A stretch of DNA of 64,000 nucleotides from Myxococcota bacterium (GTDB lineage Bacteria > Myxococcota_A > Polyangia > HGW-17): assembly GCA_036802685.1 (NCBI GenBank), contig DAIRVS010000006.1, forward strand, positions 1,073 through 65,072, in the 5' to 3' direction. Below the pieces are notes generated by a model, which had not been told where the DNA came from, ran no database searches, and was given only the letters and a program-made list of their open reading frames with translations. Shown piece after piece: positions 1,325 to 62,051 of the stretch. How positions within the stretch are numbered: position 1 is the first letter of the stretch; every line of letters begins with the position of its first letter. Made by a program: the position numbers and the translations under genes.

Positions 1325-2653
1325 TTATAGCACTTCCGCAGGGGAAGAAGAAGGAAAAAGTCCGGCGGGTTCGATCCCCTCGAACTCGAGGTACAGGGCG
1401 GCCTTGAGCAGGGTGTTGGCGGTGTGGTGGGTGACGTCGGCGCGCAGCGTGCGGCTGTCCGGGGAGAGGGGCCAGGCGCCCTCGACCAGGATCGGGTCCA
1501 CGGCGCCCCGGGTGTCGCCCACGCGCAACTGGAGCTTCTGCAGCGCGTACACGGCGAACCGCACGCTCTCGCGGTAGCGGGCCAGGCGGTCCTGGTCCCC
1601 GGTCAGGCGGGCCAGGGCGACCGCGTCGGCCACGCCCTCGAGCCGCAGGGCGGTACGCCAGGTGGGGCCTTCTCCGGCCTCCTCGCAGATGTAATGGCCC
1701 AGCCGGTCCAGGTCGCCGGTGTTGTGGGGGAGATACTGCCGGGCGACGATGGCGTCGGTGATGCGGAACAGGTATTCCGGGATCCAGGCCAGCGGCCGGT
1801 GCGCGTACAGCCGGACCAGCGGATCCCCCACCCACAGGCTCATGAGATACCCCTCGTCGGTGGCCTCGTAGGAGCGCTCGGGGTGCTGGTAGAGCCAGTA
1901 TCCGGTGGCCTCCATGGCGTCGAGGTACCGCGCGTCCCCCGTATAATCGAAGAGACGCCCCAGGGCCTGCAGGCTCTGCCCCCACTGCAGCGACCCCCCG
2001 CGCGTGAAGACGCCACCCTCGGCGATGCTGTCGAGCAGGTACTGCCCCAGGCGGTCGATCAGTGCGTCCCGGGAGATGTCCCCCAGGTGCTTCGCGTGGG
2101 AGGTGAGCGAGAGCAGCACCAGCGCGGTGCCACCCAGATCGGTGAGCACGGCCGAGTCACCCAGTTCGGTCACCTGGGAGGTGAGCCAGCGCAGGGCCCA
2201 CTCGGTGGAGAGCGAGAACTCGGGACGACCGGTGAGCTCGGCGAGCATCGCCTGAGTGAACGCGCTGCCGCACTGACGGTGGATCTCGTCCTCGTCGGCC
2301 CAGAGCCCCGTCCGGTAGTCGTACTGGTAGCCGAAGCCGCCGTCCGGGCGCTGCACCTTGATCAGGTAATACCCGCCCAACGCGGCCGCGTACACGATGC
2401 CGTCCTCGCCGGTGTCCGAGCCCGCGAGCGCGAGCGGCGGCGTCAGGGCGTCGGCGGCCCTGGCCAAGGTGGCGTGCTGCGTCGGCCACTCGTAGCCCGG
2501 AACGCGGGAGGCGTCGTATACGCGCCAGGGCGGCTCCTCGAGCACGAAGTCGCCCAGGGTGTGCAGGTCCTCCGTGCAGGCGGGGAGCCCCAGCATCGGG
2601 AACAGCAGGAACGGCAGGAGGCGCCGGAACGTCTGGCGACGAATCATTTCCAC
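1325..2653 (-). CDS. putative lipoprotein of unknown function (signal peptide + LPAC lipobox)
   Basis: 442-aa ORF with N-terminus MIRRQTFRRLLPFLLFPMLGLPAC, high GC3 codon usage, and no recognisable catalytic motif. Confidence 0.6.
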   Translation of the reverse strand: MEMIRRQTFRRLLPFLLFPMLGLPACTEDLHTLGDFVLEEPPWRVYDASRVPGYEWPTQHATLARAADALTPPLALAGSDTGEDGIVYAAALGGYYLIKVQRPDGGFGYQYDYRTGLWADEDEIHRQCGSAFTQAMLAELTGRPEFSLSTEWALRWLTSQVTELGDSAVLTDLGGTALVLLSLTSHAKHLGDISRDALIDRLGQYLLDSIAEGGVFTRGGSLQWGQSLQALGRLFDYTGDARYLDAMEATGYWLYQHPERSYEATDEGYLMSLWVGDPLVRLYAHRPLAWIPEYLFRITDAIVARQYLPHNTGDLDRLGHYICEEAGEGPTWRTALRLEGVADAVALARLTGDQDRLARYRESVRFAVYALQKLQLRVGDTRGAVDPILVEGAWPLSPDSRTLRADVTHHTANTLLKAALYLEFEGIEPAGLFPSSSPAEVL

Positions 2654-2967
2654 GCGACACCCCCGAGGTAGCCGGTGACGCTGTCGGCGTTGCCGTTGCC
2701 GGCGTAACTGTCGGACTCGGCGACGATCTCCATGGTCTCATGCCCCAGGGCGCGCAGGGTGGCCATCATGACGGCGGTGGGGATCTCGCCGCACATGGTG
2801 ATGGACCCGTCCGTGATGTAGTCGTGCAGCCCCTCCACGTCCAGCCGGTGGACGTAGTCCGCCAGCGCCGCGTCCTGCTCCCGGGCCACGTCCAAAAGCT
2901 CCCGGTGGACCAGGTCCGTCGTGGTGAGCAGCAGCACGCCCTGACCCGGTACCCCGGGATCAGCCAC
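2644..2967 (-). pseudogene. Memo-family (AmmeMemoRadiSam system protein B-like) C-terminal fragment with high-GC3 codon bias; its N-terminal part is out of frame or missing
   Basis: Translation ...LLLTTTDLVHRELLDVAREQDAALADYVHRLDVEGLHDYITDGSITMCGEIPTAVMMATLRALGHE...SDSYAGNGNADSVTGYLGGVAW matches the Memo C-terminus (SSDLSHW-like, ICG..P and SSVSYAAGAL-like motifs). Upstream in-frame sequence is not Memo-like. A diverged Memo N-terminal remnant (MQFSGAIAAEVLARVEEPDVVNVLASDTDMLG) lies in a different frame at about 3000-3100. Confidence 0.55.
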
Positions 2968-2990
2968 GGGCCCTGCCCCCAGACCGCCAT
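2866..2990. repeat. left copy of an imperfect ~120-bp direct repeat of Memo-gene coding sequence (right copy 6206..6323)
   Basis: Aligning the two stretches by eye gives about 90% identity with no indels and a 43-bp perfect core ccctgacccggtaccccgggatcagccacgggccctgccccca. Nine of ten mismatches are synonymous in one minus-strand frame. Confidence 0.8.
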
Positions 2991-3371
2991 GGGGCCCCCA
3001 GCATGTCAGTGTCCGACGCCAGAACGTTCACGACATCGGGCTCCTCGACTCGCGCGAGCACCTCGGCTGCAATAGCGCCCGAGAACTGCATGCTCGCATT
3101 GGGTGGAGAAAAGTATTTTCCTCCTTGACATCCAGTCAGGGACGAGTATCTTTTTTATTGGTGACCCACAGTGAGCGAAAAAGCATTTTTTCCAGATTTA
3201 TTTGTATATGTTGATGTTCTAACTTTCAACAGCATCGAACAACTTATTTTCTCCAAGACCCGCATATCTTGCTCCCCATTAGTCCGACCCCACTTTTCTC
3301 TGCCATGTTTTGAGGCAATTATGCTTCAATTACATTTTTTGTTTTTTTCCTGAAGGATGACGGTGTAAAAA

Positions 3372-4766
3372 ATGTTGAAAAACACAGGTTTTCTTTTCGT
3401 TCTGCCGTTGCTTCTTTTTGCAAATAATGCTTATGCTGCTTACCATACGGTTTATGGCAAGGTAACTTATATGGAGAAAAGATACAATGGTGGTGGCGAA
3501 TACAACAAAAATTCTAATTATAATAACAACCAACCACTAGTTGGAATTAAAGTGAAGTTATGGGACATGGATGGTAATTGTGTAGATTTTCTGAATAGTT
3601 GTAATGAAACTGATGATGATCTTCTTTCCGAAACAACTACAAACAGTAGTGGTTTTTATTATTTCTACAATATTGGGAACCTTGAAGATATCTACATAAC
3701 AACAAATCTCGAGACCGCTTATTCTAACGTCATGATTAATTCAACAACTGAACTTGTTATTGCATCTCCGGTTAAAACAGATTTCGGAACCGGACAACCA
3801 ACCAATATAAGGTATGACTGGACAGTTAGTTGTTCAAATTATTGGTTATATCCCAATACTAGTTGCAATTCCACCGACGCACTTAACACTGTTTTAGATA
3901 GCTCTCAGACAGTTTCTAATTCGGAAGCTACAGCGTCTGCTAATGTCACAGCGACACAACTGCACGTCGAAGGAAAATTTAATAGTAGCATTTTTTCCTC
4001 TGATACAACCAATTTCTATATCCTCCCGAACAATCCTTCTTCTGCTGCTTGTATGTCCCATTGTTACGATGATGCAAACGGAGACGGTAACCCAGACGGC
4101 AACAATACCGCGTTGCCAAATGGTCAAGATATTTGTGTTTGCACGCCGTATACCAATCACCGTGTTGCACATGAGATCGGGCATTCAGTCATGATGAGAG
4201 CTCTAGGATATCCTGGTTCTTTGTCCACCTGTCTAAATGGTCACAGTTGGAGTCAAATAGACCAATATGAAAAATGCGCAGTTTCAGAGGGATGGGCAAA
4301 TTTTTTTGCTGCCGCGACCTTCTTCTCGGATACTGATACAAGTGCATACTATGTACTTGCTGTGAGAAACATGGAAGGTCTCATCGACTCTTATTATAAT
4401 AATGGCACCTTAAAGGTTTGCATGGATCGCGATACCAGCCCCATGGATGTTGAGGGGAATGTAAGTAGGTTTTTCTGGGATTTATATGACTCTACTTCAG
4501 TTGACGATACTTTCCCAGTTACAACTGGCGAAGGCGATAATCTAAATTTATCCATGGATCAATTGGTCGATATTTGGAGAGAATTTCCCTCTGGCACAGA
4601 TAATCTAGAAGCCAGTGAGTCTGGGTACGACGGAAGAAACATATGGGATTATTTCTACCACGCCAATGCTGGTTTTTCAATCAACGCCGGTGGCCCAATT
4701 TTATCAAATTGCCTTTGTTATCAGAATGGCAATTATGCAAATTGTGCCTATCTAAATGCATATTGA
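3372..4766 (+). CDS. secreted N/S/T-rich protein with an HExxH zinc-metalloprotease motif (HEIGHSVMM), in the low-GC island
   Basis: 464-aa ORF with signal peptide MLKNTGFLFVLPLLLFANNAYA, many Cys and N-x-S/T sites, and AT-rich codon usage unlike the host. Confidence 0.6.
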   Translation: MLKNTGFLFVLPLLLFANNAYAAYHTVYGKVTYMEKRYNGGGEYNKNSNYNNNQPLVGIKVKLWDMDGNCVDFLNSCNETDDDLLSETTTNSSGFYYFYNIGNLEDIYITTNLETAYSNVMINSTTELVIASPVKTDFGTGQPTNIRYDWTVSCSNYWLYPNTSCNSTDALNTVLDSSQTVSNSEATASANVTATQLHVEGKFNSSIFSSDTTNFYILPNNPSSAACMSHCYDDANGDGNPDGNNTALPNGQDICVCTPYTNHRVAHEIGHSVMMRALGYPGSLSTCLNGHSWSQIDQYEKCAVSEGWANFFAAATFFSDTDTSAYYVLAVRNMEGLIDSYYNNGTLKVCMDRDTSPMDVEGNVSRFFWDLYDSTSVDDTFPVTTGEGDNLNLSMDQLVDIWREFPSGTDNLEASESGYDGRNIWDYFYHANAGFSINAGGPILSNCLCYQNGNYANCAYLNAY

Positions 4767-4859
4767 ATTTTTCAATTGAAAAAGCAAGCCCATAGACTTC
4801 TCCGCACTGTGCCTATTATTCTATGTGTGGCCTCTCTTTTACTGCCCACCTTATGTTTC

Positions 4860-5447
4860 TCACTCCCCACACCCTCCCTCATCCAGGCTGTCATGATCTG
4901 GCGTGACCGCGACATCGTGATTGAATCCCGTACGACTTTGATAGAGAGCAAAAGAACGCAGCACGTCTGCAGCAAGAACAGGTGTCAACCGATCACCGCG
5001 TTGAATGTTCACCGTGAATCCTGTGCAGTTAGACGTGAGTTGGGCCTTGAATTCACTCGTGTTTGAACAGCACGGCGCAAGAACCTTTTCAGCATTTTCG
5101 CGCACATCCCTTGGTATTTGATGTTTATTATCTGAAAGTGCAGGGTGGACAAGTTTGTACCTTTTAACTTCGCTCTTGAATGTCCTCTCGAGCATCTCCG
5201 CGTGTTTCAACCATGCGGGGCTCAAAACCGAAGTGAGACGATTCATATTTTTAACAGGGAAATTCACCGTCCCGTCATCGGAGAGAACCGCAAGGTCCAA
5301 TATCGCCGCCCTGATCATGATAACTTCGGCAAAATGAACGTATGCGGATTTCCCGGTCTGGTGGTCCCACCACTTCAACTCATACGAGTGCCCTGGTTTC
5401 CGTGCAGGTTCTAGCTTCACCTCGCATATGGGCACGAGCCGGACCAA
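4860..5447 (-). CDS. hypothetical protein (island cargo)
   Basis: 195-aa ORF in the low-GC block. It is co-directional with, and 26 bp from, ORF 5474..6124, so the two may be one disrupted gene. Confidence 0.35.
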   Translation of the reverse strand: MVRLVPICEVKLEPARKPGHSYELKWWDHQTGKSAYVHFAEVIMIRAAILDLAVLSDDGTVNFPVKNMNRLTSVLSPAWLKHAEMLERTFKSEVKRYKLVHPALSDNKHQIPRDVRENAEKVLAPCCSNTSEFKAQLTSNCTGFTVNIQRGDRLTPVLAADVLRSFALYQSRTGFNHDVAVTPDHDSLDEGGCGE

Positions 5448-5473
5448 CTTTTTATCGCGCGACCGCTCTCCAT

Positions 5474-6124
5474 TTAACCGTACTGCAATATCACACGTTT
5501 GCGCCAGTAAAACGTAATACTTTTCCTTATCTGTACATTTAAATATTTAAATATGTCGCCCGCACTAAGCGGAAGGTGATGAAAACGAACGATCTCGGCA
5601 GGTAGGTACAACTCCGACCGCTGGTAGGAAAGCGCCTGCTTCCCAGCATCCTCGAGGCCATGTCGACCACCGCTGATCGGAACCATCGAAACCTTACGCG
5701 CTGCATCCACTAAGGAAATAAAATCCTCGTCGCCCCTAACTTTATCACGCATGGTACAAGTAGCGACGTGAGCCGCGATCCGAAGAAGCGTCTCACCCTC
5801 CCACACGCCTTCCTTCCGAGAGGACCCGAAAACTGTGCTATCGAAGTCGTAGACGTTCCATGCGGCCAGGGAATCGGCTGCTGCTTCGTGGGCCTGTTGT
5901 AAGTGTGCCCTCGCAGAATCTCGAACCTTCTTGATTGGAATTGAGAGGATGGCAAGTCGCAGAAGATGCAGGAATCCAGCGTAGTCAGGTGCCCTCGAGT
6001 TGAGACGAGCCTTGGCGATCACTATAAAGCCGTTCTGGTCGACGCCATGTTCTTGGGCCAATTCAGACCATCTGGTGAGTTCCGTTCCCTGGCTGACAGT
6101 TTGGGTCAGTAGCGCGCAGTACAC
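5474..6124 (-). CDS. hypothetical protein (island cargo)
   Basis: 216-aa ORF with intermediate GC and no recognisable motif. Confidence 0.35.
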   Translation of the reverse strand: MYCALLTQTVSQGTELTRWSELAQEHGVDQNGFIVIAKARLNSRAPDYAGFLHLLRLAILSIPIKKVRDSARAHLQQAHEAAADSLAAWNVYDFDSTVFGSSRKEGVWEGETLLRIAAHVATCTMRDKVRGDEDFISLVDAARKVSMVPISGGRHGLEDAGKQALSYQRSELYLPAEIVRFHHLPLSAGDIFKYLNVQIRKSITFYWRKRVILQYG

Positions 6125-6740
6125 TCCTTTCGACGGCGAGGGCCTCGTCCCTGGGGACGAACGCGAGCGGCTCGGTGGCGAAGTCCACTACGTAGGAAGT
6201 GGGCGAGCGCCGCGTCCTGTTCCCGGGCCACCTCGAGCAGCTCGCGGTGCACCAGGTCCGTCGTGGTGAGTAGCAGCACTCCCTGACCCGGTACCCCGGG
6301 ATCAGCCACGGGCCCTGCCCCCACACGGCGAACGGCTGGCCCTCGAGTTCGTGGTCCGAGGCCAGCACGACCACCACCTCGGGCACGGTGATCCGGGCGA
6401 ACACCTCGGCCTGCACCTCTCCGGAGTACCGCAGGCTGGCGTGGGGGGTGATCACGGCCGCGGCGTCCCGCCGCTCGCGCACCCCCGTGTCGCGCATGAG
6501 ACCCACGACGTTGCGGTACAGGTCCGCCGGATCCTCGGGGTAGAAGCTGCCCGCGTGCTGCCAGGGCCGCGCCCCCGGATCGTCCAGGCCGGGCTGGGGC
6601 CCCGAGAAGTCGGGGGTCTGGATGTCCTCCCAGCCCGTGGGGGCGGGATCCTCCTCGCACCCTGCGGTCAGGGCGGGCACACAGAGAAAGACGAAAACCA
6701 GGAAAGCACGAAAGACAAAGAATAACCGGGAGGACGGCAT
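6063..6740 (-). CDS. Memo-family (AmmeMemoRadiSam system protein B-like) lipoprotein. The N-terminal ~135 aa are intact; the 3' part changes frame inside the repeat, so this is a possible pseudogene or frameshifted gene
   Basis: MPSSRLFFVFRAFLVFVFLCVPALTAGC...WQHAGSFYPEDP...ITPHASLRYSG...VVVVLASDHE matches the Memo N-terminal half (HAGSWY and PHAGY.YSG motifs). The conserved downstream segment GVLLLTTTDLVHRELLEVAREQDAALA is in the -1 frame, and the central ~100 aa of canonical Memo are absent. Confidence 0.5.
   Translation of the reverse strand: MPSSRLFFVFRAFLVFVFLCVPALTAGCEEDPAPTGWEDIQTPDFSGPQPGLDDPGARPWQHAGSFYPEDPADLYRNVVGLMRDTGVRERRDAAAVITPHASLRYSGEVQAEVFARITVPEVVVVLASDHELEGQPFAVWGQGPWLIPGYRVRECCYSPRRTWCTASCSRWPGNRTRRSPTSYVVDFATEPLAFVPRDEALAVERSVLRATDPNCQPGNGTHQMV
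6206..6323. repeat. right copy of the imperfect direct repeat (partner 2866..2990)
   Basis: See the left copy at 2866..2990. Confidence 0.8.
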
Positions 6741-6834
6741 CGGGTGACCTCGCTCGGAAACAACCTTCCCTGAAACCCGTCTCATGTCAAGTCGCATGGC
6801 CCGGTTTCCCCTGAATGAGCCCCCCTCCATCTCC

Positions 6835-6864
6835 AAATCAAAATCGAAATCGAAATCGAAATTC
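6835..6864. repeat. hexanucleotide microsatellite (AAATCG)n, 5 units
   Basis: aaatca aaatcg aaatcg aaatcg aaattc, in the divergent promoter region between the Memo-like gene (minus strand) and the histidine kinase (plus strand). Confidence 0.9.
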
Positions 6865-6991: not shown

Positions 6992-8740
<1,749 letters not shown>

Positions 8741-8749
8741 ACTGCGTCC

Positions 8750-9679
8750 ATGATCCCCGAACGAACGCCCCCCCCCGCCACCTCCCCCGCGCCCGACGAG
8801 CGGGCCGCCCTGGCGACCCGCGCGACAGTGCTGGGCTCGGTCGTCAACTTCGCGCTCACGGGGTTCAAGTTGGCCGCCGGGCTCCTGGGCGGCTCCGCGG
8901 CCATGGTGGCCGACGCCATCCACAGCCTCTCGGACTTCGCCACCGACCTGGTGGTGCTCCTGACCATGCGCATCACGCGCCGGCCCACCGACGCCGACCA
9001 CGACTACGGCCACGGGAAGTTCGAGACCCTGGCGACCATGATCATCGGTGTGGCGCTGCTGCTGGTGGGCGCGGGCATCGGCTGGAGCGGGATCAAGACC
9101 ATCCACGGCGCCACCCACGGGGAACCCGTCCCGATGCCCCACCTGATCGCGCTGGTGGCCGCCGCGGTCTCCATCGTCGTCAAGGAGTGGCTCTATCGCT
9201 GGACGGTGGGCGTGGGCCGCCGGATCAACTCCTCCGCCGTCCTCGCCAACGCCTGGCACCATCGGTCCGACGCCCTCTCGTCCCTCGGGACCCTGGCCGG
9301 CATCGGCGGGGCCATCTTTCTCGGCCGGAGCTGGACCATCCTGGACCCCATCGCCTCGATCGTGGTCTCGTTCTTCATCCTGCGGGTGGCGCTGCAGATC
9401 TGCCACGGCAGCCTCAACGAAATGCTCGAGAGCGCGCTTCCCCCCGCGGACAAGGCGCGCATCCTCGAGCTGGCTCGCTCCGTCGAGGGCGTGGAGGATC
9501 CCCACAACCTGCGCACCCGGCGCCTGGGGAACAACATCGCCGCCGAGCTCCACGTCCGGGTGGACGCCGACCTGAGCGTGCGCGAGGGCCACCGCATCGC
9601 CTCGGAAGTGGAGCGGCGAATCCGCGCGGCCTTCGGGAACGACACGTTCGTGACCGTCCACGTCGAACCCCGGAAATAA
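8750..9679 (+). CDS. cation diffusion facilitator (CDF) family metal efflux transporter
   Basis: Translation with HSLSDFATD and HDYGHGKFE motifs, six predicted TM helices, and a C-terminal cytoplasmic domain. Confidence 0.8.
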   Translation: MIPERTPPPATSPAPDERAALATRATVLGSVVNFALTGFKLAAGLLGGSAAMVADAIHSLSDFATDLVVLLTMRITRRPTDADHDYGHGKFETLATMIIGVALLLVGAGIGWSGIKTIHGATHGEPVPMPHLIALVAAAVSIVVKEWLYRWTVGVGRRINSSAVLANAWHHRSDALSSLGTLAGIGGAIFLGRSWTILDPIASIVVSFFILRVALQICHGSLNEMLESALPPADKARILELARSVEGVEDPHNLRTRRLGNNIAAELHVRVDADLSVREGHRIASEVERRIRAAFGNDTFVTVHVEPRK

Positions 9680-9697
9680 CCCCCCCCTCCGGTATCC

Positions 9698-9733
9698 AGA
9701 TCGAAATCGAAATCGAAATCGAAATCGAAATCG
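9698..9733. repeat. hexanucleotide microsatellite (AAATCG)n, 6 units
   Basis: agatcg followed by (aaatcg)x5, in the convergent intergenic region between the CDF gene and mglA. Same unit and orientation as the repeat at 6835. Confidence 0.9.
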
Positions 9734-9783
9734 GGATTCTCCGCACTTCGCGGGATCATTCCGGCGACTTTGTCGCCTACAAC

Positions 9784-9807
9784 GGGACACCCTTTTGCGG
9801 GCGTCCC
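9784..9807. terminator. candidate bidirectional terminator hairpin between convergent genes
   Basis: gggacaccc-ttttgc-gggcgtccc is an inverted repeat (9-bp arms, one mismatch) followed by a T-containing tract; the CDF gene ends at 9679 and mglA at 9849. Confidence 0.35.
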
Positions 9808-9848
9808 TTGTTCCCATCGAAATCGTTTTTTCTTGACTTTTCGAGGGA

Positions 9849-24702: not shown

Positions 24703-26568
24703 ATGCGCATCCTCAGCACCCTGTTCGCGTTCTGGAGTCTCTTCGCCATCGTCGCCTGCGACGACGGCGGCACCAAGGCCTCCGACCCCGTCTGCGGTAA
24801 CGGTATCGTCGAGACTGGCGAGGCCTGCGACGGCGACGACTTCGCCGGGATGACCTGCGAGAGCTTCGGACAACCGGCAGGGACCCTCGCGTGCTCGGCC
24901 GGGTGCACCCTCGACTTGACCGGCTGCCGCGCGCTCAACGTCTGCGGCGATGGCATCCGCGATCCGGACGAGCCCTGTGATGGCGATGACTTCGGCACGA
25001 TGACCTGCGAGAGCTTCGGTATGGAGGCCGGCGACCTGGTCTGCACCGAGACCTGCACCATCGACGCGTCCGCCTGCCATGAGCTCGACGTCTGCGGCAA
25101 CGGGATCGCAGAGGCCGGCGAAGCTTGTGACGGCGAGGACTTCGGCACCTTTACCTGCGCCAGCTTCGGCTTTGACGGGGGCACTCTCACCTGCACCGAA
25201 GCATGTACGATCGACACCGCAACTTGCGGGTCAGTTCCTCCCGTATGCGGTGACGGGATCGCTCAGATGGAGAACGCGGAGGAATGTGACGGAAGCGATC
25301 TGGACGGAGAATCCTGTCAGTCCATCGGCTTTGCAGATGGGTCCCTGTCGTGTCTCCCCGACTGCACATTCGACACCTCAGCATGCACAGGTTTCTTCAC
25401 GGTTTCGGGCCGAGTATGGAGCCCCGGAGCGGACAATCCTCTCGTGCAGGAAACGAACTGGTTCCCCATCGCCAGAGCGACTGTCTCCGCCTACCTTACG
25501 GAGCCGCCGGCCCCGGCTCCATTGCCCGTCGGACTGTGTATGCCCTGTGAAGTACTTCCCGCCGGTACACCGTTCGCAGTTACCGAGCCGGATGGTTCTT
25601 TTGAGCTTCAACTTCAACCTAACACGACCTACTGGCTCCTGGTGCAAAAGGGGCATTTCCGACGTGTCAGCCAGATCACCACTGCCAATGCAGGCGCGGT
25701 TGATAATCTGGAACCCTCTCCAGGCCTCCCGCGCAATCCCATCACGACGCTGCCGAACCAGACCATTCCGGCTTCCAGACAATGGATTCCGAAGATCCTG
25801 ATCGTGGAGGGAAATTATGAGATGCTCGGTAAAATCTTCGAGACCCTTGGGTTCATGTACGGCACGGAGATCACAATCGTCAACGACGATGCCTCGTACA
25901 ATCTTTTCAATGACATCGACCAACTGAGAGAATACCAGGTCATCATCGCCACCAGCGGAGATGATGCGTCCTACCTCACGAATTCTGCAATACGATCCAA
26001 CCTTCAGCAGTATGTCTATGACGGCGGAATCCTGATCGCCGATGACTTTGCATATGATTTCACTGAACAGCCCTTCCCCGAGTTCGTGAGTTACTATGAA
26101 TCCGGGGGGGTCTGTGGAGATGGATTGAATGCCCCAGCGACCATTGGAGAATGCAACAATTGGTCATCGTATTCGCCTTCGGTCACCGCTGGAGATCCAA
26201 CCCTGAACCTGTGGATCAACCACGTGAACGGTGGAAGTGCATTCGCTTTCCAGGGGGTATGGAACATCATCCATGGACTGACAGCAGGGTTGCAGGGAAA
26301 TTGCAACGACCTCAATGACCCTTATTGCATTGACGGAAACTGGCTCGCACCGCCAAAGGTTTGGCTGAATGGGTCCTGGTCAACTTACTCAAATCATCCC
26401 CTGTCCGTCTCATGGAATTACTACTGCGGACGGGTGTTCTATTCAGCAGTCAAATCCTTTTCCAGCGGTCCCCAGACTGGATATGATTACTTGCTGCCTC
26501 TGCAGGAAAAGGTCTTGCTCTACTTGCTACTTGAGATGCAGGAATGTGCCGATCCTACATTGCTGTAG
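24703..26568 (+). CDS. lipoprotein with five Myxococcus cysteine-rich repeats (myxo_disulf_rpt type) and a C-terminal domain of unknown function
   Basis: Lipobox AIVAC, then five repeats of the form VCGNGIVETGEACDGDDFAGMTCESFG...GTLACSAGCTLDLTGC. Confidence 0.8.
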   Translation: MRILSTLFAFWSLFAIVACDDGGTKASDPVCGNGIVETGEACDGDDFAGMTCESFGQPAGTLACSAGCTLDLTGCRALNVCGDGIRDPDEPCDGDDFGTMTCESFGMEAGDLVCTETCTIDASACHELDVCGNGIAEAGEACDGEDFGTFTCASFGFDGGTLTCTEACTIDTATCGSVPPVCGDGIAQMENAEECDGSDLDGESCQSIGFADGSLSCLPDCTFDTSACTGFFTVSGRVWSPGADNPLVQETNWFPIARATVSAYLTEPPAPAPLPVGLCMPCEVLPAGTPFAVTEPDGSFELQLQPNTTYWLLVQKGHFRRVSQITTANAGAVDNLEPSPGLPRNPITTLPNQTIPASRQWIPKILIVEGNYEMLGKIFETLGFMYGTEITIVNDDASYNLFNDIDQLREYQVIIATSGDDASYLTNSAIRSNLQQYVYDGGILIADDFAYDFTEQPFPEFVSYYESGGVCGDGLNAPATIGECNNWSSYSPSVTAGDPTLNLWINHVNGGSAFAFQGVWNIIHGLTAGLQGNCNDLNDPYCIDGNWLAPPKVWLNGSWSTYSNHPLSVSWNYYCGRVFYSAVKSFSSGPQTGYDYLLPLQEKVLLYLLLEMQECADPTLL

Positions 26569-26596
26569 CAGGAGTTTTTTAACAAGGGTTATCACC

Positions 26597-27979
26597 ATGA
26601 CGAAATTGACATCAATTCTGTGTGGATTTCTTTTTCTTTTCACTGCCTGCGACGACGGCGGCACCAAGGTCGCCGACCCCGTCTGCGGTAACGGTATCGT
26701 CGAGACTGGCGAGGCCTGCGACGGCGACGACTTCGCCGGGATGACCTGCGAGAGCTTCGGACAACCGGCAGGGACCCTCGCGTGCTCGGCCGGGTGCACC
26801 CTCGACTTGACCGGCTGCCGCGCGCTCAACGTCTGCGGCGATGGCATCCGCGATCCGGACGAGCCCTGTGATGGCGATGACTTCGGCACGATGACCTGCG
26901 AGAGCTTCGGTATGGAGGCCGGCGACCTGGTCTGCACCGAGACCTGCACCATCGACGCGTCCGCCTGCCACGAGCCAGACGTCTGCGGCAACGGGATCGT
27001 GGAGGACGGTGAGGCCTGTGACGGAGAGGACTTCGGCTCCTTCACCTGCACCAGTTTCGGCTTCGACGAGGGCACCCTGACCTGCACCGAGGCCTGCACG
27101 CTCGATCTGTCCAACTGTGGGGGGTATGAACCACGCTGTGGCAACGGCGTGCTCGATACCGGGGAAGAGTGTGACGGCGATGACCTCGGGGACGTGACCT
27201 GTGATTCCATCGGCCACGATGGCGGTGTCGTGTCCTGCCTCTCCGTTTGTATCCTGGATTTCGACGGGTGCACTTGTGGCTCCAACCAGCGCTGCATTGG
27301 AAGCCTCGGATGCTGTAACGGGTCCTGTATCGACATTCAAACGGACACCAACAATTGCGGCGGATGTGGCAGTCAATGTTCCGCTTATACATCCAATGCA
27401 TGTGTCGACGGCACCTGCGCCTGCGGATCCGGTACCGAATGCCAAGGGGGACGTCGATGCTGCACGAACGGCTGCAAAGACACCAGCAGTGATGTCTACA
27501 ACTGCGGTTCTTGCGGCAACGCATGCGGTGTGGGTTTGACCTGCTCGGGAGGGCAATGTTTCTGTGGTTCCACGCCGTGCGTCTTTGGCGAGAGTTGCTG
27601 TGGTGATTACTGTGCCAACCTCACCACCGACCCCACCAACTGCGGCGAGTGCGGCAACGACTGCGGCAACGGCAACGGCTGCTCGAACGGCGACTGCACC
27701 TGCGGCACCTCGGGCCAGGTATGCCGCGGCGAGTTCGACTGTGGTTTCATGCCCGGCATGTCCACTTGCACCGAGGAGTGCTGCCCCACCGGCTGCGCCA
27801 TCACCGTTTCGGGTGACCTGATGGGCCTGACCGCCGTCGACCCGCACAACTGTGGCGAATGCGGCAACGACTGCGGCGCCAACATCTGCTGCTGCTCCTC
27901 CTTCCTCGGCAGCGGCTGCAGTTGCTGCTCCACCGGCCAGACCTGCGACCCCATGGCGGGCTGCATGAACGCAAAATAA
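26597..27979 (+). CDS. paralogous lipoprotein with five Myxococcus cysteine-rich repeats plus C-terminal NCGxCGxxC repeats
   Basis: Lipobox LFTAC. The first ~110 aa after the lipobox are nearly identical to the upstream paralog. The C-terminus carries repeated NCGGCGSQC / NCGSCGNAC / NCGECGNDCG modules. Confidence 0.8.
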   Translation: MTKLTSILCGFLFLFTACDDGGTKVADPVCGNGIVETGEACDGDDFAGMTCESFGQPAGTLACSAGCTLDLTGCRALNVCGDGIRDPDEPCDGDDFGTMTCESFGMEAGDLVCTETCTIDASACHEPDVCGNGIVEDGEACDGEDFGSFTCTSFGFDEGTLTCTEACTLDLSNCGGYEPRCGNGVLDTGEECDGDDLGDVTCDSIGHDGGVVSCLSVCILDFDGCTCGSNQRCIGSLGCCNGSCIDIQTDTNNCGGCGSQCSAYTSNACVDGTCACGSGTECQGGRRCCTNGCKDTSSDVYNCGSCGNACGVGLTCSGGQCFCGSTPCVFGESCCGDYCANLTTDPTNCGECGNDCGNGNGCSNGDCTCGTSGQVCRGEFDCGFMPGMSTCTEECCPTGCAITVSGDLMGLTAVDPHNCGECGNDCGANICCCSSFLGSGCSCCSTGQTCDPMAGCMNAK

Positions 27980-55992: not shown

Positions 55993-57837
55993 TCAATCAG
56001 ACCGGTACTCCAGGTCTTCCACGCCCTTCAGACGACCATTACCCGACACCATCAGGAACGTGCAGACATCGAAGACGATCGACCCAAGTTCTTGCGCTGC
56101 TCGGTCCAGACTCGAACCTTTTGACCATCGATGTCTCTTCAAGCTCAGGCGAAACTTCGGCGGCAATTCGAGCGGCACATTGAAATTCACATGATGAGCA
56201 ACACCTTTGGGATCGAGCCCCGTGATGTACAGACCGTCGTCCCGCAGGAATGCGTGCATGATGGGCCTTCCCTCGAAGAGATCCCCCAGGGCGATGCCTT
56301 GCCAGAACAGCGCCAACGGCACTCGCAACTGAAATACGCCCATCTTGGCCGTCTCGAGAGGGTTTGGCTGCACGGGGAAATACCAGTTCAGCACGAGGTT
56401 CTCACGATCGAGCTCCGGGGTCGAAGTCAACATGGCCGTCTGGAGTTGTCGCTCCAGTTCGAGCAGAGAAACTGGCAGAGGACCAGCGGGTATCACCGGT
56501 GGCGAATAATCGTATCCGGTAAAAACCATGCACCAGTGCTTTTGCAGAGCCTCTTTTCCATAGCTTCTCCCCAACCTGAGCCGGAGACCGGATTCTCCTG
56601 GTCCACTTTCCCGCGCCGTGACCCAAGGATTGGCCCGCAGATCTTCACGGAGCTTGGCACTCAAGTCCTGCAGAAACCTCGGAGGCAACGGCTCGGGCCT
56701 TTCGTCTTCGTACCAATGGGATACCACGTTCGCCTCTGGCGCATCGATCCCTTCATCGGGAAGTGGAGCGACAGCCTCCGACCGCAGTTTCACCGAAGTC
56801 TTTCGCTCGAGACGCTCAGGAAATTCAGACTGATACATTAAGGCGCGAAACACAATCCGCTCCCCTCGCGAGAGCAAGCTGGCCGGGGATAAATACGCTG
56901 TGCGTGCGCGCGTTTCACGCTGGGCTTTCGAACTCGCGGGCACATCCGTCACCAGCGGTCGTCGCAACGACTGCCGTCGGAAAAACCGATGCAACACCAA
57001 CTGCCGTGTGGTGGGTCTGACTTTCCATTCCTTCTCCAGGAGTCTCAGATTCCAGTCCCTGTCCTTCGCCACCGCTAAAATGGCTTCTCCTCGCTGGCAG
57101 TTCGCGTAATACCCCCAGTTCTGGTGCAGGACCTCCGAACGCTTCCAACGCCGGACCAAGTCCAAGGGGTTGGTCGTCATCAGGAAAAGGCCCGTCCAAT
57201 TTCCATCGATGGAAACCAGGGTGGCCATCATATCGGGCGTGCCGTCCACGCGGTCCAGGGACTGCGCCAAGGTTCGTCCAGGCTCCTGGAAGCTGTCCAT
57301 TCCAAAAACCAGCGTGTGCAAAGAGAGACGGAACAGAGACGGCTGCGGCTCGTCTTCGACGTTGCGCCCCAAATGGATGAAGGCGACGGATGCCTGCGAC
57401 GGTTTCCCCGAAAAAATGGTCTTCCTTTGTTCCGCCTCTTTCGAGATGAATACGCCTGAATCCTCGAGATAGGAAGACATGACCAGCCGATGGAGACGGA
57501 ACCGTTCTTCTCCGGACACGGTGGACAAACTCCCACAGAGCAGAACGAACCCGCCCTCGATGACCGGCTCTTCCTGGTACAGTCTTTCGACCGACTCCAT
57601 GAAGAGTTCCTGGTTTTTTTTCAACACCCGGGAAACTGGCGACGACATTCTCTCGCTTGTGAACATGCCGCGGTCGTCCAGCCAACGTCGGTGTCCGGTT
57701 ACGCCCCACAATTCCAGAGTTTCCACGAATTCCCGATACTCCCGGCACTGCCGAGGATTTTGGTACGACCAAATCACCTCGTCGACAATCGTGGGAATTT
57801 GTTGCCAATCCGGTTCCTGAAACGCGATACGGGCCAT
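55993..57837 (-). CDS. hypothetical protein (614 aa) of intermediate GC, divergent from the giant orphan gene
   Basis: Long ORF with no recognisable motif; the start was set at MARIAFQEPDWQQ; codon usage is atypical for the host. Confidence 0.45.
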   Translation of the reverse strand: MARIAFQEPDWQQIPTIVDEVIWSYQNPRQCREYREFVETLELWGVTGHRRWLDDRGMFTSERMSSPVSRVLKKNQELFMESVERLYQEEPVIEGGFVLLCGSLSTVSGEERFRLHRLVMSSYLEDSGVFISKEAEQRKTIFSGKPSQASVAFIHLGRNVEDEPQPSLFRLSLHTLVFGMDSFQEPGRTLAQSLDRVDGTPDMMATLVSIDGNWTGLFLMTTNPLDLVRRWKRSEVLHQNWGYYANCQRGEAILAVAKDRDWNLRLLEKEWKVRPTTRQLVLHRFFRRQSLRRPLVTDVPASSKAQRETRARTAYLSPASLLSRGERIVFRALMYQSEFPERLERKTSVKLRSEAVAPLPDEGIDAPEANVVSHWYEDERPEPLPPRFLQDLSAKLREDLRANPWVTARESGPGESGLRLRLGRSYGKEALQKHWCMVFTGYDYSPPVIPAGPLPVSLLELERQLQTAMLTSTPELDRENLVLNWYFPVQPNPLETAKMGVFQLRVPLALFWQGIALGDLFEGRPIMHAFLRDDGLYITGLDPKGVAHHVNFNVPLELPPKFRLSLKRHRWSKGSSLDRAAQELGSIVFDVCTFLMVSGNGRLKGVEDLEYRSD

Positions 57838-57990
57838 TTTTCGTACTCCATGATTACCAGCCCAACTTGTCATTCGTCGACCGCAGACGTTTCCACGGAC
57901 GCGTAAACGAACAAAGACTGACAAAGAATTTTATGATTTTTTTCTTTTGAAATACAGTATGATGACGCGTCTTGTTTTGAGGAATCAACA

Positions 57991-60900
57991 ATGACCAACA
58001 AGACCAATAAATATAATTATAGCTTATTGTTTTTCCCGGATCAAAAAGTCGGGAAATCGAAAATGGCCTTTTTGCAGCACAAGTTGCTGGCCAGAGGTTT
58101 CGTCGATTTCCGGGACTCCGACCGAAGCCTTCTCCATCGTGATGATACCCTCCTCGTGCATGACTTCTTCAGCACAGCAGACAGGGATGATCAGCTATTT
58201 CTGGGTTTCTATTTGGATGGGTTTCCGGAAGATGACAAAACCTTGACGATACAGGATTTTGCCAAAGGCAAACATGACCAGAGTGGAAAACTGGAGGATC
58301 TGTTTTTTTTATCGGCATCCAGGAAAATTCTTTGTTGCATCGTTGTGCCGGACGAGATAAAAATCATCACGAAAAAGTTGCCCATGTTCCAACGCAGGTC
58401 GGACCAATCGATCGCCGTGGTGTTTATCCATTGTCATGCCGACTCTGGCCTAGGTAACCTCACCTCTGAGTTGTTCTCCATTTTGATGAAATTTATGACT
58501 TCCAACCACACGCACCTTGATAAAGCCTATTTGGATACATTTTATTATTATAGTGATGATTACTTTCCATTCTTGCAGAATTTCGGTGCGTTCGAAATTT
58601 CCGTTGGCTCATGTGAAATCCAATGTCTGGATGAATACAGACCTCCAATAAGAAAAAATCGGCAGGGCGTGGACGCCTTGAAATTGGAAAACCTCGAAAG
58701 GCACACATTGGAACGAAGCCGGATGGACTGGCAACTCGCGACTCCCGCCATGCCCCTACCTCCTGCAGAATTGAACTCCCCGAAACCGGAAATCCAGTTG
58801 TTGAAAACGACGAAGGAAAAGACTCTGCTCCATGAACTCGATAAGCTCGGCCGACAACTACAGGTTGTAATCAAACAGGTGCACCAGGGAAATGCGTCCG
58901 GAGCTCTCCAAAACCTGCTGGAAGTGATTGAAAATCTGAAAGAAATCCAGGACCCCGGAGAAGTCGTCCATCGTATGCTCTTTTTTGCCCTGCTCTGGTA
59001 CGGGAATCTCTGGTTGAACAGGAAAAACTATGACAGTGCCCTGCTAGCCTGGGAGGAGGCAATATCCGTCCAGGAGCGATACGCAGGCGGGCAATATTAT
59101 TCCCAAGAACAGTCATTGTTCATCTATGATGCACTGAGTTATATATATTTTAAAAAAGACAATTTCGATGCCATGGAATTTTTCATTGAAGAGAAATTCA
59201 AACTTCTGGAGAAACTGCCTGACCATGATGGACCGTTGAAGACCATTTACCTGAACACTCAATGTCAAATATTAATACTTTTGCTCAAAAATGCTGAAAT
59301 AGCAAAGGCATTGACGATGTCCAGTCAACTACTGCAGGCCTTTTTTTCCGGGGAGCATGAACTGCCATCACATTGGCAGGTCTTTCAATTGGTCTGGAGC
59401 CTATACACCGAAGCAGCGAGCAGATGCAGGAACATCGACGGATGGCTGGAGGCAAGCACCGCGAAAGCCGGATTATTGAACTCTCTCGCTCCCCTGACTG
59501 AATCGACCTGGCAAGAGGAGTTGTTCACCGACACCGAAATCGAACGCTCGATCGGATGGGTTTTCCATGAAATTCCCAATCGCTTCATGGATCCCGACAA
59601 CCAACAGCGCATCCAAACCATTCGAAGGAAATTCGTCGAATCGCCCTGCCCCCCAGCCCTCCAGCAAAAAATGCTCAACTGGGCTTTTCATGTTGGGTAT
59701 TTTTACTTGAGAAATCAACAACTTGAGCGGGCCCACGAGTTCTTTGAAATCGCAAGAAAACATCTGACGGAATTTCAACTGGACCCTCGCACGATGGAAC
59801 ATGTCTTCGTGCTCTTTTATGAATTCGCTGGTGCGGCGGCCCACACTTCAGGTGATGCATATGCCGCATTTTTCTGGAGCAAACGAGAGTATGACTATTT
59901 CTCCACTGACAATCAAGAACCGGGCAAACTGGCCTCCTGCTTGTATCGGTGGCTCTATAGTTCAATTCGTGTGCAAAACCAAAATGGAATCGAAACGGCA
60001 GTGAGTGCGGCATCTCCCTTGCTGGAATTGCCGGTTTACCCAGATGTGTACGAAGTGGATCCACTTTTACTTTGCAAACTGTACCTATTGTGCACCAAGC
60101 AATTGCAGGAAAAGGACCGCGATGTGAACACGCGGTTGATCCGCCTAAACAATGAACGAATCCTGCGAGTCACGGAAGATCCCAAATATTCGCTTCAAGA
60201 AGTCGCAAGTCTATATCTGCAATTCTATCAGAACTTCCTGACATCCACGCGTGGCGCGGCCTTTTTATCCCTGAAACGTCTATTGAACCGATACTGTACG
60301 AAAAAGGATCCCTCGGATCAACGCGAAGAATGTTTTCTAATCATGATGAAGACCGGCATTCTGATTCAATACATGATTGCACTAGTTCACCCTTCATATT
60401 ATGTTCTTTTTTCTAATATCGTCCATGTAATCCGAATGGTTGAATCTCCCCGCCAGGACCAGTTCCATCTGCTTGAATATTATTTCCTATCAATGTATTA
60501 CCTTGAAAAAAAGAACCAAGAGCAAGTATTACCTCAAGCCCTGCGAAAATACCTTAGCCTGGACAGCCAATTGTTACTGCAAAAATGCACCCTGAAAGAC
60601 CGAACCCTGGTTCGTCCAGAGCTCTTTGAGGCCATTCATAAGTTAATTGACTCTCATGTGGAAAGTCGTTCATTCAACAGACAGGAGGAACTGTATCGAG
60701 TCATTTTCAGCGCTTGTTTTTTGGCATCGATGAATCCAAGCGAAGATGACCTGCTCAGCCAATTGGCCATTGCCGTCGAGCGAATCCCCGAGCAGAACCT
60801 CAAATACGGCATCAACAAGCAAATTGCCAAACTGCTCCATGAATGGACGCCTATCAATCCAAAGAAGTTCATTCCGGAGTTTGTGCGATCCGTGAAAAAC

Positions 60901-62031
60901 CTAATGGAAGCCAGTCAATACGTTGCAGACCGTTCACCTTTTATGGAATTATTACTGTTTCATGAAAACCAGTTGTTTGACCCGAAACGCCCCATCAGTG
61001 ACAACACGATCATTTCCACTCAATGGCGATTGGTGGACCTTTATTTTCAGAACAACGACATAAATCGTGCAAACCGTATTTTTGACTTGAATGTGAAAAA
61101 TATCACCACTTGTTTCAACAAGCCCCAATTGGAAATACTCGAATTGGTTAATCAGATTGGTGAATGCAAATCCAGATTGGATAAGTTCAAGCCTCTTCAA
61201 AAAGAATCGAGAAGCAGTCTGCAGGTTCTGGCCAGGGTGTTCAGGGAAAAGGTATTCGTCGAGTCATCCCCGTCGCCCCCTTTGCACATATTGAACGAGG
61301 CCTACCGGATGATTCTGATGATTGAAATTCACCTGGACGAACCGAAAGACGTATGGGAACTACTGGAGAAAGACCTGGCCCGATGGTTTCACCTAGGCTA
61401 CAACTATTTCCATGTTTTTTCCTCGCTGGTGCTGGACATCTCTCAAAAGAGCTCCCAAATGGAAAGGAATCCGGAGAACGGCGATCCACACATTGATTTC
61501 ATCCTGAAGGCTTTTCCCATCATTTTAAAAAACACGCAGGATCCCCGCTGCGGCGAAGTATTCATAAAAGAAGCCTTTTTCCGGACTCACGATGACAAAT
61601 GCTTTAGTACTTATAGGGATATAAAGCTAGACGAATTACTTCAACAACACATAAATAACTCTATATGGAATGAAAATGTTATTCTAATTTTATCCTATCT
61701 CCACAAAAGAAATTACCGTCTGGTACATCCGGAAATAGTCGCCCGATACTCCCTGGAGTTGCTGAAAAAAGCCCTCGGGGCAGTTCGTGATCCCGAGACC
61801 GGTGAAGTGATGAATCGTTTCGAACAGTATCCAGATGGTGCACTGTATGAGCCAAATATTTTGGCATTGGCTGCCATATACAGCCAATACCACAGTTGGT
61901 GTTTCGATGGAAATATTCTTGGGTTTCTCAGCAAGTACCAGTACCGTTTCAAGGAAAAAACCAAAAACCTGAAACTGGACGATGGCGTGAAAAAGTATGT
62001 AATTTTCGCGCTCGATTTGCTCCCTATGTGA
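57991..62031 (+). CDS. giant (1346 aa) predicted all-alpha protein of unknown function in a low-GC island
   Basis: Uninterrupted 4-kb ORF with AT-rich codon usage, no Walker or catalytic motifs, and a composition suggesting repetitive helical (TPR/ARM-like) architecture. Confidence 0.6.
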   Translation: MTNKTNKYNYSLLFFPDQKVGKSKMAFLQHKLLARGFVDFRDSDRSLLHRDDTLLVHDFFSTADRDDQLFLGFYLDGFPEDDKTLTIQDFAKGKHDQSGKLEDLFFLSASRKILCCIVVPDEIKIITKKLPMFQRRSDQSIAVVFIHCHADSGLGNLTSELFSILMKFMTSNHTHLDKAYLDTFYYYSDDYFPFLQNFGAFEISVGSCEIQCLDEYRPPIRKNRQGVDALKLENLERHTLERSRMDWQLATPAMPLPPAELNSPKPEIQLLKTTKEKTLLHELDKLGRQLQVVIKQVHQGNASGALQNLLEVIENLKEIQDPGEVVHRMLFFALLWYGNLWLNRKNYDSALLAWEEAISVQERYAGGQYYSQEQSLFIYDALSYIYFKKDNFDAMEFFIEEKFKLLEKLPDHDGPLKTIYLNTQCQILILLLKNAEIAKALTMSSQLLQAFFSGEHELPSHWQVFQLVWSLYTEAASRCRNIDGWLEASTAKAGLLNSLAPLTESTWQEELFTDTEIERSIGWVFHEIPNRFMDPDNQQRIQTIRRKFVESPCPPALQQKMLNWAFHVGYFYLRNQQLERAHEFFEIARKHLTEFQLDPRTMEHVFVLFYEFAGAAAHTSGDAYAAFFWSKREYDYFSTDNQEPGKLASCLYRWLYSSIRVQNQNGIETAVSAASPLLELPVYPDVYEVDPLLLCKLYLLCTKQLQEKDRDVNTRLIRLNNERILRVTEDPKYSLQEVASLYLQFYQNFLTSTRGAAFLSLKRLLNRYCTKKDPSDQREECFLIMMKTGILIQYMIALVHPSYYVLFSNIVHVIRMVESPRQDQFHLLEYYFLSMYYLEKKNQEQVLPQALRKYLSLDSQLLLQKCTLKDRTLVRPELFEAIHKLIDSHVESRSFNRQEELYRVIFSACFLASMNPSEDDLLSQLAIAVERIPEQNLKYGINKQIAKLLHEWTPINPKKFIPEFVRSVKNLMEASQYVADRSPFMELLLFHENQLFDPKRPISDNTIISTQWRLVDLYFQNNDINRANRIFDLNVKNITTCFNKPQLEILELVNQIGECKSRLDKFKPLQKESRSSLQVLARVFREKVFVESSPSPPLHILNEAYRMILMIEIHLDEPKDVWELLEKDLARWFHLGYNYFHVFSSLVLDISQKSSQMERNPENGDPHIDFILKAFPIILKNTQDPRCGEVFIKEAFFRTHDDKCFSTYRDIKLDELLQQHINNSIWNENVILILSYLHKRNYRLVHPEIVARYSLELLKKALGAVRDPETGEVMNRFEQYPDGALYEPNILALAAIYSQYHSWCFDGNILGFLSKYQYRFKEKTKNLKLDDGVKKYVIFALDLLPM

Positions 62032-62051
62032 ATATTTATGGAGTATTATTA

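Follow-up and report, generated by a model that had tools for sequence, protein, structure and literature searches.

The 64,000-nt stretch of Myxococcota DNA analysed here (assembly GCA_036802685.1, contig DAIRVS010000006.1; hereafter the window, numbered from its first letter) carries a lipoprotein gene of the Memo family that is interrupted by a low-GC block of 3,028 nt (positions 3108-6135). We consider it probable that the locus arose by integrase-free capture of foreign DNA through homology; it is a well-documented natural case of a known process and not a new kind of system. On the minus strand the order is a histidine kinase gene, Memo(1-95 ^ 174-198), the 3'-end fragment of a lipoprotein-like gene of 470-478 aa termed H, the 3.03-kb block, Memo(~45-95 ^ 174-270) and a 442-aa gene, where Memo numbers are profile positions and the caret stands for a 253-nt frameshifting deletion. 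The upstream Memo piece (copy a) is without its 3' end and the downstream piece (copy b) without its 5' end, and mapping against two related loci (L001 and L005) places an internal fragment of the target gene, directly duplicated, around the insert.

The interrupted gene, its repeats and its empty site

The guanine-plus-cytosine (GC) content of the flanks is 0.68-0.71. It falls to 0.38 in the AT-rich island end (3108-3371) that lies 5' of the first open reading frame (ORF1), is 0.40 within ORF1 itself (3372-4766) and 0.49-0.55 at 4860-6135. A preliminary description of this DNA, made from the letters only, had reported a sharp GC drop at about 3000-6200; the drop is real, and the boundaries of the block at 3108 and 6135, which were set by homology to relatives, lie slightly inside it. 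The block has no counterpart at the locus of any relative and is unique within the window.

Around the block stand direct repeats of 132 nt (2856-2987 and 6198-6329; 89% identical, ungapped, blastn E = 8e-38), inside which lies a perfect core of 43 nt (2939-2981 and 6281-6323, minus strand in both cases) that corresponds to the most conserved Memo coding stretch (VWGQGPWLIPGY). Co-oriented Memo repeats with a perfect 43-bp core and no indels are thus found as first described. Over the 75 nt past the core the copies differ at nine sites, eight of which are third codon positions in the GVLLLTTTDLVH frame and the ninth the first position of a leucine codon (TTG/CTC); the sole replacement among the copies is D/E. 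Synonymous divergence (dS) between copies a and b past the core is 0.42 and the ratio of nonsynonymous to synonymous divergence (dN/dS) is 0.09, which bears out the signature of purifying selection noted at the outset, and the diverged coding sequence of the repeats supports the view that they are not a fresh target-site duplication. Together, the island and the Memo and H scraps form a unit of 3,342 bp.

The N-terminal part of copy a (6286-6740, minus strand) is of the type of the resident clade (clade I, defined below). From 6740 to 6294 it encodes a lipoprotein signal with the lipobox LTAGC and matches positions 1-95 of the 270 positions of TIGR04336 (E = 3e-17) and positions 3-90 of PF01875; it is 89.5% identical to L005, with a dN/dS of 0.12. 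The C zone of copy a (6207-6284, minus strand; profile ~174-198) is also of clade I type, at seven of seven diagnostic sites, and represents an allele different from that of copy b (88% identical to copy b, 90.7-92% to L005, L008, L014 and L022); past profile position ~198 copy a ceases to be Memo. The C-terminal part of copy b (2644-2942, minus strand) ends in a stop codon that shares bases with the start of the gene downstream; it is 91.5% identical to L005 (dN/dS 0.17) and of clade I type at 17 of 18 diagnostic sites, the segment 2967-2644 matching TIGR04336 positions 174-268 (E = 3e-16). Copy b is without the first ~100 Memo codons, and its core is preceded by a decayed fragment (N', 2982-3107, minus strand; profile ~45-90) that shows a 1-nt gap near 3011/3012 and in-frame stops. 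The preliminary description had already singled out this diverged N-terminal remnant, which is real (~3103-2982, 62-64% identical to copy a).

Both copies are devoid of Memo profile positions 96-173. The junction is identical in the two (GTC|AGGG, between 6285 and 6284 in copy a and between 2943 and 2942 in copy b), lies within the repeat and changes the reading frame; relative to the closest intact orthologue, the deletion corresponds to L005 10448-10700, or 253 nt (3n+1). Since it is common to both copies and situated inside the repeat, removing the island would not restore the Memo gene. A full-length, one-frame match to the ~270-position Memo profile is absent in both copies, the orthologues of 332-345 aa being full length, and Memo has been inactivated, recently, on the lineage of the window. 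Of the two Memo halves that had been called intact, the N-terminal half with its lipobox and the C-terminal part are indeed present, but once joined they do not look intact owing to the 253-nt deletion. The 225-aa ORF of the public records (P0007; 6063-6740, minus strand; Pfam Memo) is a chimera of Memo 1-95, a frameshifted read-through of the Memo C zone and the H fragment, the latter read in H's own frame (SPTSYVVDFATEPLAFVPRDEALA); as far as annotation is concerned, P0007 and the 107-aa Memo ORF in these records are pieces of a pseudogene.

The locus was recovered from nine other sources by means of a synteny anchor, the intact 442-aa gene (1325-2653, minus strand) that follows Memo in the former operon with an ATGA overlap and that the insertion has separated from the Memo promoter, and of a Memo protein search. 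The scan of genome contigs alone yielded one relative, L001, the closer relatives coming from the Memo protein search with subsequent contig look-ups; exact-protein look-ups of the 442-aa neighbour and of P0007 returned no record. Orthologues of the 442-aa gene (420-446 aa) come after Memo in every relative. In clade I (L005/L006/L007, L008/L009, L014/L015 and L022) the gene order is cation-efflux gene, histidine kinase, intact Memo, 420-429-aa gene, PFK and SmpB, with one uninterrupted Memo of 332-336 aa and no island. Such an uninterrupted gene in relatives is what the preliminary description had proposed to look for and, given that four close relatives possess a single uninterrupted Memo, the low-GC block is an insertion. 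What stands of the earlier interpretation is therefore a foreign insertion into a protein-coding gene; the mechanism offered for it was wrong, as discussed below. The window is closest to L005 on both flanks (89-97% nucleotide identity), and sliding identity to L005 revealed no clear boundary of an imported tract in the flanks adjoining the locus. The resident lineage, a member of clade I closest to L005, originally had the order kinase, Memo, 429-aa gene and PFK.

Both integrated junctions are supported beyond the window. An ENA contig that runs across the left repeat (L002/L020; ERZ724101 NODE_11965) is equivalent to window positions 1838-6082 but for 3 mismatches in 4,245 nt, and a second one (L021; ERZ724099) covers 3101-2589 at 99.4% identity, running from N' through the core into the C zone of copy b. 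The Logan unitig L003 (SRR6007444) equals 2952-6310 exactly, from the C zone of copy a through the H fragment and the island to N', with 30 nt of core at each end. Finally, P0007, located on a 68-kb contig (NCBI, ENA), spans the N-terminal part of copy a, the core, the C zone of copy a and the H fragment. We note that L002/L020 starts (1-45) and ends (4291-4342) in Illumina adapter sequence, indicating that this assembly was made from untrimmed reads.

Foreign flanks and a proposed route of capture

A second clade of relatives (clade II) comprises L001, L010 and L012. H (470-478 aa) is located between the kinase gene and Memo in L001 and L010; L012 has a Memo gene of clade II type and neither H nor the kinase gene at the locus, and the loci of L005, L008 and L014 have no H either. 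Identity of the window to L001 amounts to 77-78% in Memo and to 77% both in the kinase gene and in the 442-aa gene. Memo having diverged to the same extent as the flanking genes, the clade I and clade II Memo genes are orthologues and not ancient paralogues.

The origin of each Memo piece was read from diagnostic sites, defined as alignment columns with one base in every clade I gene and a different one in every clade II gene. N' (3108-2982) has the clade II base at 11 of its 13 diagnostic sites and the clade I base at one, and is 72-73% identical to L001 and L010 as compared with 62-66% to clade I and copy a. These clade II bases imply that N' came from outside. From the core onward copy b is of clade I type (22/23 sites), the switch from clade II to clade I falling within 2988-2977, where the core has its left edge; copy a is of clade I type throughout, including 10 of the 13 sites upstream of the core. 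The two copies are thereby reciprocally chimeric around one crossover point and carry, downstream of the core, two different clade I alleles. Measured against clade II, N' has a dN/dS of 0.4-0.6, which, together with its indel and stops and set against the values of 0.12-0.17 in the resident parts, indicates that N' has been dead longer and was so before the resident Memo gene was.

The opposite end of the block is occupied by 71 nt (6136-6206, minus strand) from the 3' end of H. blastn aligns them to L001 2830-2900 at 74.6% nucleotide identity (E = 2e-7) and, in tblastn, residues 431-454 of H match 6206-6136 at 71% amino acid identity; the remainder of H was not found within the window. The Memo-H join lies in patchy microhomology (GGCxCTxGCxGAC...TACGT), and the join of H to the adjoining cargo pseudogene (X, described below) is abrupt. 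The H 3' end and the clade II Memo 5' part flank the block in clade II order and orientation, a clade in which they are ~450 nt apart. Judging from these alignments and diagnostic bases, the DNA touching both ends of the island is foreign too, and of clade II type.

We propose that, in a clade II-like genome, the low-GC block first took the place of ~450 nt made up of the 3' end of H, the 5' third of Memo and the spacer between them, and that a DNA segment consisting of the block plus its H and Memo flanks subsequently reached clade I cells. The segment may have been circularised by an illegitimate join of Memo ~198 to the H fragment, in the microhomology around TACGT, and the resulting circle would have been integrated by a single RecA-type crossover in the 43-nt core. 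Alternatively, a one-sided homologous anchor combined with an illegitimate join (homology-facilitated illegitimate recombination, HFIR) would have led to an equivalent outcome. Either event would be expected to duplicate the carried internal gene fragment, so that the 3' end is missing from the upstream copy and the 5' end from the downstream one, as is seen at the locus. The locus has both a homologous anchor (the core) and, opposite it, a microhomology join (Memo-H), and the stretch between the core and Memo ~198 has been duplicated rather than lost.

At least one further step would have to be added to this capture through homology. The two C-zone alleles are as far apart as clade I species (dS of 0.42 between copies a and b versus 0.30-0.43 among L005, L008 and L014) and differ almost exclusively at synonymous sites; with the shared deletion, this calls for at least one extra event, which may have been passage via a second clade I host, allelic replacement with a tract ending at the deletion heterology, or copy-copy gene conversion. 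Each C zone is 89-96% identical to other clade I genes, and identities to L005, L008, L014 and L022 over the 75-nt zone cover too short a sequence to tell which allele is the resident one.

A number of observations weigh against the proposed route. A single crossover into an intact gene does not yield the same 253-nt deletion in both copies; for the deletion to be shared, an allele that already had it must have existed or gene conversion must have followed. No second instance of the deletion pattern was found, and an allele with the deletion but without the island is not known: the exact pattern of the junction had no match in JGI metagenome contigs, nor was an empty-but-deleted allele or a circle junction found there. 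The C zones of copies a and b differ by 12%, which obliges one to assume at least one extra event, and the events could have followed one another in more than one order. Neither the ORF1 homologues nor the metagenome-contig searches led to a genome in which the block lies between H and Memo. Recombination between clade I and clade II Memo genes, which are ~78% identical, would rely on an identical run of 14-17 nt and be inefficient, and in principle the donor need not be another species, as a second, unsampled H-Memo locus in the same genome could have served instead. Lastly, all of the assemblies cited above possibly originate from the samples of one study.

In laboratory mutagenesis, a circle that cannot replicate and bears an internal piece of a gene integrates by one (Campbell-type) crossover, an event known as insertion-duplication. 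The Memo locus shares with it an insert bracketed by directly repeated copies of an internal piece of its target gene, the reciprocal truncation and chimerism of the copies, and the dispensability of an integrase. It departs from it in being a natural event between sequences ~78% identical outside the core and in displaying a two-clade mosaic fragment; the shared 253-nt deletion and the two C-zone alleles, moreover, require more than one event. In Escherichia coli, linear DNA with one-sided homology was mostly recircularised and integrated by single crossover, giving rise to duplications of 109-950 bp, and true HFIR was a rarer, minority outcome (PMC3240628); the Memo duplication (132 nt now, with ~240 nt of Memo carried) falls within that experimental range. 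HFIR itself (de Vries & Wackernagel 2002, Prudhomme et al. 2002 and Meier & Wackernagel 2003, as cited in PMC5361080 and PMC3240628) has been proposed to account for natural arrays of displaced genes (PMC5361080). As in HFIR, non-homologous DNA is trapped at the Memo locus between a homology anchor and a microhomology join; unlike classical HFIR, which usually deletes the recipient DNA between anchor and join, the event duplicated the Memo segment. In type VI secretion system (T6SS), Rhs and contact-dependent inhibition (CDI) loci, orphan 3' ends and immunity-gene arrays form by successive displacement (PMC5361080). Those incoming modules, too, recombine via a conserved gene segment and leave truncated remnants as a record, but the loci are recurrent hotspots selected for toxin and immunity diversity, whereas the Memo insertion is a single, probably neutral or accidental event in which the target gene was destroyed, not re-tipped.

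If the proposed route is correct, the cargo has kept scraps of the previous host chromosome (the H 3' end and the Memo 5' part) that identify its earlier insertion site and show that flanking homology moved the block across a clade boundary. To our knowledge, few natural integrase-free captures allow each of their junctions to be traced, and what is known of HFIR and of recircularisation plus single crossover comes mostly from laboratory constructs. The case also suggests a rule for genome scans, namely that long coding direct repeats that flank an island and differ mainly at synonymous sites point to insertion by homologous recombination from a related donor rather than to attachment sites (att) or to a target-site duplication.

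Other explanations of the locus

The best-surviving of the competing explanations, although an unlikely one in our estimation, sees in the 3,342-bp unit a still-mobile, non-autonomous circle that uses its Memo fragment as a homology handle, is integrated and excised by the RecA of its host, and has its repeat segments swapped in each host. The notion that the unit might be a minimal homology-handle mobile element, devoid of integrase, replication and transfer genes, is to be regarded as equally tentative. The three Memo lineages present in the repeats (the clade II N' and two clade I C-zone alleles) are consistent with such an element, and the 132-nt direct repeats would permit its excision. 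The 30 nt of core at either end of L003 would be expected of a circle and of an integrated copy alike, but a shared overlap of k-1 at unitig ends is what any repeat yields in a de Bruijn graph (k=31 for L003). No closed junction (N' to core to the C zone of copy a) and no empty deleted site were observed, whereas L002, L021 and the window all show integrated junctions. In addition, no replication or transfer genes are found in the 3.3-kb unit, and the element occurs in one lineage only among the billions of proteins searched. Were the homology handle real, the three-lineage Memo mosaic would be the travel log of serial hosts, and the shared deletion an allele spread by exchange with the chromosome.

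Quite unlikely, too, is an origin in situ, by which a tandem duplication or an old pair of Memo paralogs would have been split by illegitimate insertion and partly homogenised by conversion over the 132-nt tract. Identity between the copies does change sharply, from 63% to 100% and 88%, in a manner that resembles a conversion tract, and copy-copy conversion would easily explain the shared deletion junction. Relatives, however, have a single Memo gene, and the divergence between clade I and clade II Memo equals that of the flanks, as expected of orthologues of two clades; nor could random decay of a clade I copy have produced the 11 of 13 clade II bases in N'. The H fragment, furthermore, belongs to a gene absent from clade I loci, and the island separates it from copy b, contrary to the placement that an in-situ H-Memo pair would give. 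The old paralog pair that the preliminary description had held to be equally plausible is abandoned on the same grounds.

We regard as very improbable a classical island for which a site-specific recombinase acted in trans on the 43-nt core as att site and in which the island-borne Memo is a replacement gene end. An island with a replacement gene end had been put forward earlier by comparison with tRNA-targeting islands, and the locus does share with integrase islands in tRNA, tmRNA and protein-coding genes a low-GC insert, direct repeats (here perfect over 43 nt at both ends), relatives whose site is empty and, at the island edge, part of the target gene in a further copy. Yet no recombinase is encoded among the island ORFs (Pfam, NCBIfam and PHROG searches) and the neighbours of the island are Memo, the histidine kinase gene and the 442-aa gene, leaving no integrase in or adjoining the island. 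The core is simply the most conserved coding stretch of diverged gene segments whose 88% homology runs on past it on one side; the island-side Memo pieces restore nothing, and the ends of the insert are truncated genes, and there is a microhomology join to an unrelated gene fragment. Insertion sequences and transposons are no better match, as no transposase is encoded among the island ORFs, no terminal inverted repeats are found at 3108/6135, and the repeats are 132 nt of diverged coding sequence, unlike a short target-site duplication. Rfam, tRNA and inverted-repeat scans of the region returned nothing relevant.

That the contig is a metagenomic chimera of Memo strain variants and an unrelated low-GC fragment is hardly credible: the source is indeed metagenomic, coverage in the sister assemblies is low (cov 2.6-4.6), L002 starts and finishes in Illumina adapters and the divergence of the two C zones is like that of strain or species variants, but each junction is reproduced by another assembler or sample (L002, L021, L003 and P0007), the SPAdes assembly behind L002 would, if run with default settings, have used k-mers longer than the 43-nt core, and the joins coincide with microhomology and with homologous crossover points instead of with repeats of read length.

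Cargo genes and other features of the window

The insertion leaves the cell with one intact gene for a secreted HExxH protein, the other cargo gene being dead. ORF1 (3372-4766, plus strand) is intact and encodes a secreted protein of 464 aa in which a signal peptide is accompanied by a beta-sandwich and an HExxH...E domain. Its invariant motifs are HExGH, E(K)CAxxEGWA(N/D)F, RFFWD and GRN..D, from which motifs alone it is assigned as a putative secreted zinc metalloprotease of a rare, undescribed family. No model for this HExxH family was found in Pfam, NCBIfam, PHROGs or PADLOC, and no sequence match in the PDB. Eleven homologues were identified among 5.8 billion clustered proteins, none of which exceeds 37% identity apart from ORF1 itself, and they sit on contigs of 45-59% GC; the exact ORF1 protein is present in two other assemblies. 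Scanning metagenome contigs revealed relatives of 30-40% identity only, and viral contigs gave no matches. The N-terminal beta-sandwich has a weak match to a transthyretin-like Pfam family and is the only part with fold matches, which are to CnaB-type pilin domains and come from a low-confidence AlphaFold model with a predicted local distance difference test score of 56. A single promoter-like site was noted at 3125-3152 (plus strand), the consensus scan as a whole being not above chance for the region.

The second cargo gene is a pseudogene (X; 4860-6133, minus strand) that retains residues ~186-589 of an uncharacterised family of ~600 aa, is truncated at its 5' end and contains one frameshift near 5547. 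In tblastn with the family member P0056, residues 190-381 align to 6124-5549 (59% identity) and residues 380-589 to 5546-4911 in another frame (49%). The first ~186 codons are missing, X being cut exactly at the island edge (6133-6135). ORF2, one of the two hypothetical ORFs that the preliminary description had listed in the island beside the secreted HExxH gene, matches the C-terminal third of ~600-aa proteins in exhaustive phmmer searches; the HExxH gene of that inventory stands, and what it counted as two hypothetical ORFs is a single dead gene that has been truncated and frameshifted. The other ORF, ORF3, had been taken for an orphan from a word-index search, a view overturned by exhaustive phmmer with ORF2, according to which ORF2 and ORF3 both belong to one ~600-aa family.

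The X family (P0056-P0120) is represented by 66 cluster representatives of ~560-620 aa with the conserved motifs GFLHLLRLAIL, VFGSSR.EG.WEGETL and LAQPCDLMVR. No Pfam, NCBIfam, PADLOC or PHROG match and no PDB sequence match were obtained for it. Plasmid matches of the X family and of ORF1 are weak only; weak relatives of the X family occur on a Rhizobium etli plasmid and on a Hymenobacter plasmid. The difference in GC content between X (0.49-0.55) and ORF1 (0.40) suggests that the low-GC block may itself be composite.

Elsewhere in the window, a second low-GC region extends over 56000-64000 (GC 0.43-0.57 versus ~0.70). It encompasses a 1,346-aa ORF (57991-62031, plus strand) without a Pfam match and a GT4 glycosyltransferase gene (61896-63188), and may be a surface-polysaccharide island. 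A milder GC dip is seen at 25000-27000. Tandem hexamers of the type (CGAAAT/GAAATC)n occupy intergenic positions 6820-6862 and 9683-9737, thus bracketing the kinase and cation-efflux gene pair, and the repeats at the second of these sites are present in L005 and L008 as well. Identity of the cation-efflux gene (8701-9700) to L005 is 73-83%, as against 90-98% in neighbouring windows of the comparison, with a sharp change at the hexamers near 9700-9816; this drop may reflect a separate recombination import or a fast-evolving gene.

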